Notes under the pieces: generated by a model | The model's database searches: none | What the model saw: the letters and a program-made list of their open reading frames with translations, nothing else | What the model was told of the DNA's origin: nothing | Shown here: piece by piece, positions 1 through 26,329 of the stretch | How positions within the stretch are numbered: the stretch's first letter is position 1 | How the letters are laid out: every line of letters starts with the position of its first letter | Translations under genes and position numbers: made by a program | DNA from: a virus | Taxonomy: Duplodnaviria; Heunggongvirae; Uroviricota; Caudoviricetes | IMG/VR virus record: IMGVR_UViG_2541047915_000012 | Length of the DNA: 38,067 nt | Direction: 5' to 3' (one strand)

Positions 1-97
1 AGTCTTGAGTCTTGAGTCTTGAGTCTTGAGTCTTGAGTCTTGAGTCTTGAGTCTTGAGTCTTGAGTCTTGAGTCTTGAGTCTTGAGTCTTGAGTCTT
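1..97 (-). repeat. Tandem heptanucleotide repeat tract (AAGACTC on the minus/coding strand); 13 full copies plus a partial copy cut by the window edge
   Basis: Plus strand reads GAGTCTT x13 (7-97) with 6 nt of a further unit at 1-6; all copies perfect; lies inside the 5' coding end of the minus-strand ORF starting at 102. Confidence 0.97.
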
Positions 98-22199: not shown

Positions 22200-22637
22200 T
22201 CATCGAAGGCATTGCGTCCTGATGTACTCCTGCAGGTAGTTAACCTGCGCGGTTATCCTGTCGATTCCACTTCGGAGACGGTAATAATTGAGTTCAGCAT
22301 CTGCTGTAAGTCTTGGGTTTTCTCCATCGCCCATGCTGCTGGCTCCGGTCGTTGACTTTGCACAGGTGGCGGCGACTTGCAGGCGCTTACGCCCAGCAGA
22401 AACATCAGCACGGAGACTTTCGATAGTCGCGTTAGCATCAGCAAGCTCCTTTGTGTATCTTGCGTCGAGTTCTGCTACATCACGTTGACGCTTCCGCATA
22501 TCAGCGATGATGGATGTGGCTTTATCGCGCTGCTCTTTGTAGGCGATTGCATTATCACGGTAATGATTAACAGCCCATGACAGGCAGACGATGATGCAAA
22601 TAATCAGAGCGGAGATAATCGCGGTGACTCTGCTCAT
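22200..22637 (-). CDS. Rz: Spanin, inner-membrane subunit (Rz)
   Basis: 145 aa; N-terminus [31 protein letters not shown] nearly identical to recalled lambda Rz; start overlaps R stop. Confidence 0.8.
22253..22444 (-). CDS. Rz1: Spanin, outer-membrane lipoprotein subunit (Rz1), embedded in Rz in a different frame
   Basis: 63-aa ORF wholly inside Rz; hydrophobic leader ending in lipobox-like VSAC, then proline-rich [13 protein letters not shown]; true start may be an internal Met. Confidence 0.55.
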
Positions 22638-23110
22638 ACCTCAATCTCTCTGACCGTTCCGCCAGCCTCTTTGAATTTTGCAATCAGGTTGTCAGCCTTA
22701 TGCTCGAACTGACCATAACCAGCGCCCGGCAGTGAAGCCCAGATATTGCTGCAACGGTCGATTGCCTGACGAATATCACCGCGGTCAATCATCGGTAAAG
22801 CGCCACGCTCTTTAATCTGCTGCAATGCCACAGCGTCCTGACTTTTCGGAGAGAAGTCTTTCAGACCAAGCTGCTTACGGTAGGCATCCCACCAACGGGA
22901 AAGAAGCTGGTAGCGTCCGGCGGCTGTTGATTTGAGTTTTGGGTTTAGCGTGACAAGCTTGCGAGGGTGATCGGAGTAATCAGTAAATAGCTCTCCGCCT
23001 ACAATGACGTCATAACCATGATTTCTGGTTTTCTGCCGTCCGTTATCAGTTCCCTCTGACCACGCCAGCATATCGAGGAACGCCTTACGTTGATTATTGA
23101 TTTCCACCAT
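22634..23110 (-). CDS. R: Endolysin, lambda R-type lytic transglycosylase
   Basis: 158 aa; [51 protein letters not shown]... essentially as recalled for lambda R. Confidence 0.85.
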
Positions 23111-23417
23111 CTTCTACTCCGGCTTTTTTAGCAGCGAAGCGTTTGATAAGCGAACCAATCGAGTCAGTACCGATGTAGCCGATGAACACGCTCGTTATAT
23201 AAGCGAGATTGCTACTTAGTCCGGCGAAGTCGAGAAGGTCACGAATGAACCAGGCGATAATGGCGCACATCGTTGCGTCGATTACTGTTTTTGTAAACGC
23301 ACCGCCATTATATCTGCCGCGAAGGTACGCCATTGCAAACGCAAGGATTGCCCCGATGCCTTGTTCCTTTGCCGCGAGAATGGCGGCTAACAGGTCATGT
23401 TTTTCTGGCATCTTCAT
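23094..23417 (-). CDS. S: Holin, lambda S-type (class I) with dual-start motif
   Basis: 107 aa; begins [41 protein letters not shown]..., Met1-Lys2-Met3 dual start as in lambda S107/S105. Confidence 0.85.
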
Positions 23418-23796
23418 GTCTTACCCCCAATAAGGGGATTTGCTCTATTTAATTAGGAATAAGGTCGATTACTGATAGAACAAATCCAGGCTACTGTGTT
23501 TAGTAATCAGATTTGTTCGTGACCGATATGCACGGGCAAAACGGCATGAGGTTGTTAGCGCAACCTCATGCCACCCGCTTTCACGAAGGTCATGTGTAGA
23601 AGGCCGCAGCATAACTATCACTGATGAATTCAGGATAGCCAGTGGCTACGGCTCAGGTTGGGTTGTGGCGGTCGGTGCTGAACTCCGACTTAATGACGAT
23701 AGGCGTGTACCGACGCCTCGTTTTACTTCCTCCGCTTTCACGGCTTCACCCTAGACCAGCTTTACGAAATCCTCGTAAACCTAACCGCGGCAGATA
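23418..23796 (-). promoter_or_regulatory. Lambda-like late-operon leader upstream of S (sdi stem-loop, 12-bp hairpin), cut at its upstream end by IS911
   Basis: Minus strand ends ...AATCCCCTTATTGGGGGTAAGAC-ATGAAGATG (CCCC/GGGG stem before the dual start); perfect 12-bp stem GGCATGAGGTTG/CAACCTCATGCC at 23543-23572 followed by GTTTTG; overall sequence closely resembles the lambda leader as recalled. Confidence 0.6.
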
Positions 23797-23868
23797 TGAA
23801 GTGGTTTACTGAATTTGGCCACCTGAACAGAGGTGATATGCTCACCTCAGAACAACACAGGTGCCATA

Positions 23869-25016
<1,148 letters not shown>

Positions 25017-25204
25017 CTCGGTGGCCAGTTTTTGTTGACCACTTCAATATGACCGGCACGGTGTGCCATATCACGGACCGGCGGGTGTCTCGTTCACCTG
25101 ATTAACGCATCAGCCTGCGTATTCACCACAACGATAAGAGTACTGCGCGGCACCTTTCACCAATTCCGCGAGGTCTGCGGGTTCAATGCTCTTACCTGTT
25201 GTGC

Positions 25205-25249
25205 AAACAAAAAAGCCACCGTTGCAACTTAAGAGTCACTAACGGCAGC
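25205..25249 (-). terminator. Rho-independent terminator just downstream of Q (tR'-like)
   Basis: Minus strand GCTGCCGTT-(18 nt)-AACGGTGGC stem with two G-U pairs, followed by TTTTTTGTTT; directly precedes the lambda-like leader motif GCACAACAGGTAAGAGCATTGA. Confidence 0.55.
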
Positions 25250-25259
25250 TTACCTTCTA

Positions 25260-25289
25260 ATTATGGCTAAATGGATAATTGCATGTCAA
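25260..25289 (-). promoter_or_regulatory. Candidate late promoter (pR'-like) overlapping the Q stop codon
   Basis: Minus strand TTGACA (25289..25284), 18-bp spacer, CATAAT (25265..25260); the -35 lies in the last Q codons; terminator hairpin begins only a few nt after the predicted start, so assignment is tentative. Confidence 0.45.
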
Positions 25290-25785
25290 GGTTTTTAACA
25301 GCAACATGCTTAACTTTCTCAACACGTTTACGCATTTTGAAAGCATTTTGCATTGGCTGGTATAAAACAAATAATGACGCTTTCAGGATGTCGTCAATTT
25401 CGTTTCTACAGGTTGCCAGTGAAGGTTTTCTCCATCCCTCGCCACCACGTCCACACATCTTGCGTGGCTTTGCAGTCGCGTGATAGTAGGATGCAATTGC
25501 TCGCTTAGATGAACCATGAGCGTAGTAGCTGAGGAGGATGCCAAAGGCTTTCTTGTCAATGTACATGACGGAATCAACGACCTGAGAAATCAACATTCCA
25601 TCATCATCATTACACATTGGCCTTGTCATAATTCTTCCCGGCTCTACGCTCTCCATGAACTTCGCTATTACGCTGCTCATGCGCTTTTCCAGACGACCTG
25701 AATAAACCCATGCGCCCCACAGTTCAAGCCAGCCATTCAGCCACTCGTGCTGCTCTTTGGTGAGGTTTAGTTCTCTTATGCTCAT
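25267..25785 (-). CDS. Late-gene antiterminator Q-family protein (not lambda-Q type)
   Basis: 172 aa; motif WGAW...CNDDDG resembles Q-like antiterminators of cryptic lambdoid prophages; directly upstream of candidate late promoter and lysis genes; start overlaps ninH stop. Confidence 0.6.
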   Translation of the reverse strand: MSIRELNLTKEQHEWLNGWLELWGAWVYSGRLEKRMSSVIAKFMESVEPGRIMTRPMCNDDDGMLISQVVDSVMYIDKKAFGILLSYYAHGSSKRAIASYYHATAKPRKMCGRGGEGWRKPSLATCRNEIDDILKASLFVLYQPMQNAFKMRKRVEKVKHVAVKNLDMQLSI

Positions 25786-25970
25786 CGTCTTCCCCTCTTG
25801 CCTTGTTTGACCATCAGGACGCCGTTAACTATTACGTGACGCTCGCCTTTGCTGTCTCGGTTGTACTTGAGCACTGTTCCTCTTGCGCAGGAAAGCATCC
25901 TCGCCACTTCGGTCTGATTGCCTCGTGTCTGGATAAGAAGCTCTGGTATCGTTTGAATTGTGGCGTTCAT
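25782..25970 (-). CDS. ninH: NinH-like small DNA-binding protein
   Basis: 62 aa; ...TIPELLIQTRGNQTEVARMLSCARGTVLKY...HVIVNGVLMV resembles lambda NinH (...TIPDMLVE.YGNQTEVARRLKCSRGTVRKY...HAIVNDVLMV). Confidence 0.7.
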   Translation of the reverse strand: MNATIQTIPELLIQTRGNQTEVARMLSCARGTVLKYNRDSKGERHVIVNGVLMVKQGKRGRR

Positions 25971-26329
25971 GCGTTCTCCAGTTCGGTGATTTTTATTCCA
26001 AGCCGTCCGCCTGGTACTTTCACACCACGAATTACGCGAATGTCATCGAATTGCTCGTCGTCTTCCGCAAATCCGGCGTGGATAAGGGAGTCGAGTAAAC
26101 CTTTCAGGATGTTGTCGAGGTCGCGGCGGCGGGAGTCTGGAACGTCTGCGATGACTTTGATACGGAGTCGTGATTTGGTGAAAATGTCTAACTTGAGTTG
26201 GCGGATGATTTGCTGAACGTCTTTTCGGTATTTCTGGCCTTTATCGCTTATGTAATATTGGCTTCCCCGTCTTCGCCAGTAGGTATTCACCGACGGCGGG
26301 TATGGAAGCACAAACTGATATTCGTTCAT
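25967..26329 (-). CDS. rusA: RusA-family Holliday junction resolvase
   Basis: 120 aa; motifs LPYPPSVN.YWR, DVPDSRRRDLDN, GGRL.I.ITE match RusA as recalled. Confidence 0.7.
   Translation of the reverse strand: MNEYQFVLPYPPSVNTYWRRRGSQYYISDKGQKYRKDVQQIIRQLKLDIFTKSRLRIKVIADVPDSRRRDLDNILKGLLDSLIHAGFAEDDEQFDDIRVIRGVKVPGGRLGIKITELENA

Follow-up and report, generated by a model that had tools for sequence, protein, structure and literature searches.

A phage-21-type late regulatory region in a CUS-3-like prophage and the LPR2-like hairpin behind its terminator

We compare here the late regulatory region carried by a viral DNA stretch of 38,067 nucleotides (nt), IMG/VR virus record IMGVR_UViG_2541047915_000012 (referred to as the window), with that of phage 21, reportedly treated by Guo, Kainz & Roberts in 1991, and with those of related phages. 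In phage 21, two protomers of the antiterminator Q21 occupy a direct-repeat Q-binding element (QBE) between the -35 and -10 elements of the late promoter and engage a sigma-containing transcription complex that is paused at a -10-like element. One of the two protomers forms a ring, or "nozzle", at the RNA exit channel; as this nozzle passes only single-stranded RNA, terminator hairpins are blocked (PMC6606751; bioRxiv 10.1101/651190). The pause at +18 of the phage 21 promoter PR' is sigma-dependent (PMC9191641), and the terminator 21tR' stops transcription in vitro, with read-through raised by Q21 (PMC6606751). Short terminated RNAs are produced from the late promoters of phages 21, phi80, 82 and P22 (PMC7547250).

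The late region of lambda follows the same logic, with a constitutive promoter, a sigma-dependent promoter-proximal pause (at +16/17, against +18 for phage 21 PR'; PMC9191641), a QBE, an intrinsic terminator and the lysis genes S-R-Rz. A further product of the lambda late operon is LPR2, an Hfq-bound RNA of ~63 nt made in the lytic cycle (bioRxiv 10.1101/2024.10.31.621285). A third point of comparison is StxS of the Shiga toxin (Stx) phages, likewise a short constitutive RNA that arises in lysogens from an antiterminated late promoter.

The window, 100% identical to CUS-3 (CP000711) across positions 25060-25800, is a CUS-3-like P22-family prophage; CUS-3 itself is a P22-like prophage whose host is E. 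coli K1 strain RS218. We consider it highly probable that the region at the end of its Q gene is a phage-21-type late regulatory cassette comprising the end of Q, the late promoter pR', a QBE, a sigma-dependent pause element (SDPE) and the terminator tR'. Everything that can be checked in the sequence agrees with such a cassette: homology of Q, promoter, QBE, SDPE, terminator and the late genes downstream. A cassette of the lambda Q/6S RNA type, in contrast, does not fit, Q being unrelated in sequence and the leader RNA measuring 46-50 nt as compared with ~194 nt. The promoter and terminator to which an earlier note, made from the sequence alone, had drawn attention are already known, since the cassette is essentially identical to features annotated in Sf6, HK75, L and CUS-3. 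In this respect little changes: what the locus shows is a textbook late switch of the phage 21 type, in a prophage type already known. The hypervariable LPR2-type hairpin that follows the terminator may be the one new element. Coordinates of the late cassette are given below in window numbering and refer to the minus strand unless otherwise stated.

The late regulatory cassette at the end of Q

The Q antiterminator gene (25267..25785) encodes a protein of 172 amino acids of the Q21 family. The protein matches Pfam family PF06530 (E = 1.6e-25) and, in a phmmer search, the phage 21 Q structures 6JNX/6P18 with E ~1e-91 across residues 1-162 (structures of the phage 21 Q system comprise 6JNX and 6P18/6P19). 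Its identity to phage 21 Q is ~85% by tblastn, and it is 100% identical to the CUS-3 protein, the gene for which is named Q in the CUS-3 record. No similarity to lambda Q was detectable by BLASTP (E = 5.8), which bears out the description of Q as non-lambda in the earlier note. The same gene is found at 96-99% identity in HK75, HK629, Sf6, Huey and many Salmonella P22-like phages. In the phages whose late-operon activator has been designated type 3 (gp23/gpQ), namely L, Sf6, ST64T and HK75, Q is 97-100% identical in DNA and the promoter, the QBE variant, the SDPE and tR' are identical to those of the window. The open reading frame ends in CTT GAC ATG CAA TTA TCC ATT TAG (L D M Q L S I stop), with the stop codon at 25269..25267. 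Its C-terminus extends 10 codons beyond that of phage 21 Q and runs through the -35 element, because the stop codon that phage 21 has upstream of this element is absent in this Q subtype; as a consequence, the Q stop falls inside the promoter.

The promoter itself, pR', is TTGACA-18-CATAAT (25289..25260), with the -35 hexamer at 25284..25289 over the Leu-Asp codons of Q and the -10 hexamer at 25260..25265. The Q stop codon lies within the spacer, and the -10 element begins 2 nt past it; the consensus promoter that the earlier note had seen over the last codons of Q is thus where it was placed. In a scan for sigma-70 promoters pR' matched the consensus at 11 of 12 positions and was the sole site to score at least 11/12 on either strand of the 38-kb window, ~0.5 such sites being expected by chance. 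An alignment was made of the end of Q, together with the 150 nt behind it, from the window, Sf6, HK75, HK629, phage L, phage 21, SfI and Nil2 (alignment A1). In this alignment pR' coincides with the promoter, QBE and RNA start annotated in phage 21, whose record (AJ237660) has a promoter annotated where pR' aligns and an "aRNA" of 50 nt that begins at the A just before TAAGCT. From the 5' end of this aRNA, the transcription start in the window is predicted to be the G at 25253, within 1 nt on either side. Other records concur: that of Sf6 describes a sequence "nearly identical to phage 21 late promoter", together with a qut site and tR', HK75 carries annotated pR' and tR', and Nil2 an annotated late terminator tR'. 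The -35 hexamer is invariant in alignment A1 and in 86 loci with a matched promoter, and it is retained in loci of the phage 21 type as well. Across 84 GenBank and IMG/VR loci with the Q subtype of the window, pR' is identical save for one base of the QBE (AATTATCC or AATTAGCC). Phage 21 differs in its -10 element, AACACT instead of CATAAT, in its spacer of 17 rather than 18 nt, and in the discriminator.

Immediately behind the predicted start, at +2..+7, stands the -10-like SDPE, TAAGCT (25247..25252), identical to that of phage 21 and forming part of the 5' arm of tR'. The intrinsic terminator tR' occupies 25205..25251. Its sequence, GUAAGCUGCCGUUAGUGACUCUUAAGUUGCAACGGUGGCUUUUUUGUUU, folds into a 39-nt hairpin (25251..25213; -20.2 kcal/mol, z = -2.9, with one of 200 shuffled sequences folding as well) that is followed by the T-run TTTTTTGTTT at 25214..25205. 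Since the stem starts at +3, the stem-loop and T-run do begin within a few bases of the start, as the earlier note had stated, and the terminated leader RNA, from 25253 to ~25205, would be nearly all terminator hairpin, with 2-3 unpaired nucleotides at its 5' end and a 4-nt loop. Aligned to pR' of phage 21, a comparison that the earlier note had itself proposed, the window is identical from +2 to the T-run, and its tR' is 100% identical to tR' of phage 21 and SfI. With the exception of HK629, all the phages of alignment A1 share one invariant sequence that runs from TAAGCT over the hairpin into the T-run, and the hairpin is preserved in every natural variant of tR'.

The length of 46-50 nt that the alignment gives to the leader agrees with the ~48 nt of the earlier note and with the 50-nt RNA of the phage 21 record. 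That note had, in one of its two alternatives, called such a transcript unusually short, which is misleading, for a leader of ~48 nt is normal in the Q21 family as judged by comparative evidence. In all of the distant relatives compared, namely Hafnia phage yong1, Edwardsiella phage GF-2, Proteus phage Pm34 and HK639, whose Q proteins are 45-72% identical to phage 21 Q, the -35 element is located at the Q stop codon or over it, the QBE is again a direct repeat, +2..+7 reads TAnnnT, and the terminator gives a leader of ~50-75 nt. Within the Q subtype of the window, leader and terminator are nearly invariant in ~74 of the 84 loci. In ~12 loci another leader of ~65 nt, of the HK629 type, is fused directly after the -10 element, and this fusion marks a second recombination joint, located at the transcription start. 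The leader of the HK629 type (HK629, locus L004, 2034-2110, and ~12 IMG/VR loci) has TATGCT as its SDPE and AGCCCACCTCCTGTGGGCTTTTTT as its terminator. A similar leader occurs in Hafnia phage yong1 (L091) with a promoter of its own, behind a more distant Q that is 72% identical to phage 21 Q.

A putative QBE (25265..25280) was located between the -35 and -10 elements in alignment A1. It lies at the position of the phage 21 QBE, shares its direct-repeat organization with an 8-bp period, consists of the subsites AATTATCC and ATTTAGCC and includes the Q stop codon TAG. For phage L, AATTATCC/AtTTAgCC has been proposed as the QBE, in a paper that places the start site as well (PMC8022706). An identity map against SfI, the Q of which is identical to phage 21 Q of known structure, divides the region into four segments: 97-100% identity over 25800-25532 (the N-terminal half of Q), 57-80% over 25531-25254 (Q from about codon 85, QBE, -10 and discriminator), 100% over 25252-25206 (pause element and tR'), and unrelated sequence below 25205, beyond the T-run. 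On this map the cassette is itself mosaic relative to phage 21 and SfI. Because identity falls to 57-80% in the diverged DNA-binding, C-terminal half of Q and in the QBE, -10 and discriminator, between flanks of 97-100% identity, the stretch 25254..25531 suggests a co-varying specificity patch in which Q and its binding site have evolved together. The variant QBE and the divergent C-terminal half of Q had already been remarked for phage L (PMC8022706).

As a side observation, the phage 21 record (AJ237660, locus L005, 1100-1120) reads CATTGAGCAAGTAGCAACACT at the QBE; CATTGAGCAAATGAGCAACACT is found in SfI and in the oligonucleotide with which the structural work was done. The old entry for phage 21 probably contains a sequencing error of 1 nt here.

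Proposed operation of the switch and alternative readings

Given the sequence identity to phage 21 and the published structures and assays, a working model can be proposed for start site, pause, Q binding and antitermination in this prophage. Sigma-70 polymerase would initiate constitutively at about G25253 from the near-consensus promoter over the last Q codons. In the absence of Q, the 5' arm of the terminator would be transcribed from +3, the hairpin would be closed by ~+41 and the transcript would be released in the U-tract, giving a leader RNA of 46-50 nt that would correspond to the aRNA of phage 21 and be analogous in function to lambda 6S RNA (194 nt). In the presence of Q, region 2 of sigma would re-bind TAAGCT at +2..+7 and polymerase would pause at ~+18, that is, before synthesis of the 3' arm of the hairpin (+31..+41). 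Two Q protomers on the QBE would then dock onto the paused complex, one of them ringing the RNA exit channel with the nascent 5' end threaded through it. With the hairpin barred, polymerase would read through tR', and in the window also through an IS911-like element, into the S-R-Rz region and the structural genes. In this scheme TAAGCUGCC would serve both as a DNA pause signal and as the 5' arm of the terminator in RNA, and the cassette illustrates how compact such a design can be, the same bases encoding sigma pause and terminator arm.

Several points weigh against reading the region as a working phage-21-type switch. The start at G25253 is placed by alignment alone. The QBE differs from that of phage 21, which was defined structurally (PMC6606751) and reads ATTGAGCA/AATGAGCA, with the repeat TGAGCA, where the window has AATTATCC/ATTTAGCC. 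In addition, the window Q departs from phage 21 Q by H95R and R128N, both within the divergent patch, two residues that are reported to be positioned in phage 21 Q so as to contact DNA bases (PMC6606751); because both the element and these contact residues differ, binding of Q at the window QBE is a prediction. The hairpin of tR' was missed by a simple terminator scan, as its bulge, loop and inner stem fall outside the rules of the scan. Furthermore, in the record of HK629 a "putative late promoter pR'" lies ~90 bp past the terminator, so that annotators have disagreed on this point; we regard that annotation as probably wrong. Finally, late expression may have been inactivated in this one prophage through insertion of the IS911-like element.

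The HK629 annotation, if followed, would favour a view also raised by the earlier note, in which the true late promoter lies elsewhere: TTGACA-18-CATAAT would be a chance or vestigial match, the real promoter would stand between the hairpin and S, and the hairpin would be the terminator of the early-right (Q) operon, a terminator right after a gene being what is expected at the end of an operon. We consider this extremely improbable. At a threshold of at least 9 of 12 consensus positions, the scan found no other promoter-like site on the minus strand from 25200 to S. The 11/12 promoter is moreover unique in the window, almost invariant among the loci with this Q subtype, and aligned with the annotated promoter, QBE and RNA start of phage 21, and its -35 element is kept in loci of the phage 21 type. 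The recurrence of the SDPE at +2..+7 and of a direct-repeat QBE in relatives with Q proteins of only 45-72% identity makes sense only if transcription starts at pR'. A different proposal accepts this start and assigns the constitutive 46-50-nt RNA a trans-acting role in the lysogen, that of a regulatory small RNA. It draws on StxS, an Hfq-binding regulator whose authors propose antiterminated phage promoters as a general source of small RNAs (PMC7547250), and on the 100% identity from +2 to ~+45 between cassettes in which the C-terminal half of Q, the QBE and the -10 are only 57-80% identical. We judge this role very unlikely, since the RNA consists almost wholly of the terminator hairpin and could hardly accommodate a seed. 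StxS, unlike the ~48-nt window RNA, is a 74-nt Hfq-binding RNA that arises by processing of a longer precursor and has defined targets (PMC7547250). The same Q subtype is paired with a quite different leader in phages of the HK629 type, and as it works with that leader too, the invariance is better explained by pause and terminator function together with recent recombination. An Rfam scan of 22500-26000 at E <= 1 returned no family for the pR' RNA and nothing relevant otherwise, the sole match being a spurious small nucleolar RNA.

Less easily set aside is the reading that the cassette is a non-functional remnant in this prophage, only the short RNA being made. The late leader is interrupted 207 nt downstream of the start by the IS911-like element, an insertion sequence (IS) of the IS3 family (1250 bp, 23797..25046, plus strand) whose orfA and orfB (Pfam HTH_Tnp_1 and rve) run antisense to the late operon. 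The element is flanked by a 3-bp target duplication, ATA, at 23794-23796 and 25047-25049, and is 95% identical to the IS911 of Sf6. Located in the stretch that separates tR' from S and carrying, on the late strand, terminator-like hairpins at 24980 and 24367, it could cut off the lysis and structural genes from pR'. The CUS-3 record lacks it, and a search of 5,426 complete E. coli genomes and 80 related viral contigs returned no insertion at this site, which suggests that it is recent and perhaps deleterious. Against inactivation, Q-modified polymerase ignores intrinsic terminators (PMC6606751; bioRxiv 10.1101/651190), so that read-through of the IS is to be expected. The inducible phage CUS-3 has Q, pR' and tR' sequences 100% identical to those of the window, in which S, R and Rz are intact. 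On balance we hold loss of function to be unlikely, though clearly less so than the two preceding alternatives, and we retain the phage-21-type late switch as the preferred reading.

The mosaic junction and the hairpin behind tR'

The mosaic junction announced by the earlier note is real: identity to the other cassettes breaks off sharply at the end of the tR' T-run, between 25205 and 25204, as seen in alignment A1, in the identity map and in the annotation of CUS-3, whose "bsq4 boundary sequence" corresponds to window 25203..25266. Past an identical tR', a tRNA-Asn gene follows in phage 21, SfI, Sf6 and L (tRNA genes standing behind the terminator of both L and Sf6), whereas the window, CUS-3 and HK75 have GCACAACAGGTAAGAGCATTGA, the beginning of an LPR2-like hairpin; the IS911-like element is found in the window only. 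Over the 86 loci with a matched promoter, at least three kinds of downstream sequence occur behind the same terminator. Sharp joints of this sort show the shuffling of Q-specificity patches, leaders and lysis cassettes.

The earlier note had described the sequence beyond the junction as lambda-like through to S and R, which is correct in two places. At the junction, window 25214..25183 matches lambda 44776-44807 over 32 nt, covering the lambda tR' T-run and the 23 nt that follow it (TGCACAACAGGTAAGAGCATTGA). Directly upstream of S, a segment of ~250 nt (23418..23667) is 96% identical to lambda ~44936-45185 and corresponds to the CUS-3 boundary sequence "bsq3". The remainder is not lambda-like, for the two patches are separated by ~135 nt of non-lambda sequence and by the 1250-bp IS, which the note had missed.

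The 23-mer that the note had recognized as lambda-like proved to be the 5' arm of a 77-nt hairpin element (25127..25203) homologous to the lambda LPR2 locus. Its arms are CACAACAGGTAAGAGCATTG (25203..25184) and CAGTACTCTTATCGTTGTG (25145..25127). Lambda carries the same arms in the same place, directly after tR' (44787-44862), around a different interior. The northern probe for LPR2 maps to lambda 44816-44850, inside the lambda copy of the hairpin. The two elements thus share closing-stem sequences and position; the interior, the part that was probed, is unrelated in sequence between them. The lambda member is the only one to have been detected experimentally, the window version being known from its sequence.

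To collect further members, we scanned viral contigs twice, with either arm; the counts that follow are accordingly lower bounds (loci L097-L262). These scans yielded at least 176 elements with at least 106 distinct interiors, which fall into at least 62 clusters of unrelated interiors (34-177 nt). Among the elements listed, about half lie between a Q gene of the lambda or 21 type and the lysis genes, and the others occur in unrelated phage genera. For instance, copies at ~92% identity are present in unannotated intergenic DNA of the unrelated Jilinvirus ep3 and Segzyvirus LPSTLL. Six contigs among the elements listed carry two copies of the hairpin.

The stem is conserved as a structure. It comprises ~19 bp, arranged as 6 bp, a bulged A and 13 bp, and 93.7% of its positions are paired over 65 distinct combinations of arms. 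Pairs of the inner stem covary (GC, CG, UA and AU), and changes on one side are almost all G.U on the strand of the late transcript. None of 500 shuffles reached the observed values of pairing and covariation, which are to be read with the arms themselves having been the search patterns.

Several known classes of element were considered for the hairpin and rejected. Although some interiors contain motifs that resemble a tRNA T-arm, the idea of a tRNA or tRNA-like gene was dropped, as ARAGORN recognized none of 70 distinct elements; the same program found no tRNA or transfer-messenger RNA in the whole window. An analogy with integron attC sites or with the terminal repeats of miniature inverted-repeat transposable elements was likewise discarded, given that no integrase or transposase context and no target duplications were seen and that the G.U-compatible substitutions are specific to the strand of the late transcript. 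No Rfam family matched the hairpin in the scan described above.

As a tentative interpretation, which we put forward as possible rather than probable, the stem may be a portable processing scaffold from which diverse small RNAs would be excised, probably by RNase III, out of the Q-antiterminated late transcript. Together with the T-run of tR' it might also serve as an exchange point for Q cassettes, for small-RNA or tRNA cargo and for lysis cassettes. Were the 76-nt lambda element cut close to its bulge, the product would measure ~63 nt, matching the LPR2 band. In the literature mentioning LPR2 that we searched, no description of the hypervariability of the interior was found. If the stem is a general scaffold for hypervariable small RNAs, it would point to a large unexplored class of late-expressed phage RNAs, and the poorly understood LPR2 of lambda would gain a family.

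Surrounding genes

The late genes for lysis and structure lie downstream of Q on the same strand, in the window with the IS intervening. A lambda-type lysis cassette (22200..23417) contains intact S (23094..23417), R (22634..23110) and Rz (22200..22637), which stand first among the late genes that pR' and Q control. The CUS-3 record gives the gene order roi, hkbD, rus, ninH, Q, S, R, Rz and terminase, with the terminase genes next after Rz, and marks two boundary sequences, bsq4 and bsq3, between Q and S. At the very start of the window (1..80) we observed tandem AGTCTTG heptanucleotide repeats, which we take to be the phase-variable heptad repeat located 5' in CUS-3 neuO, the gene for a polysialic acid O-acetyltransferase.

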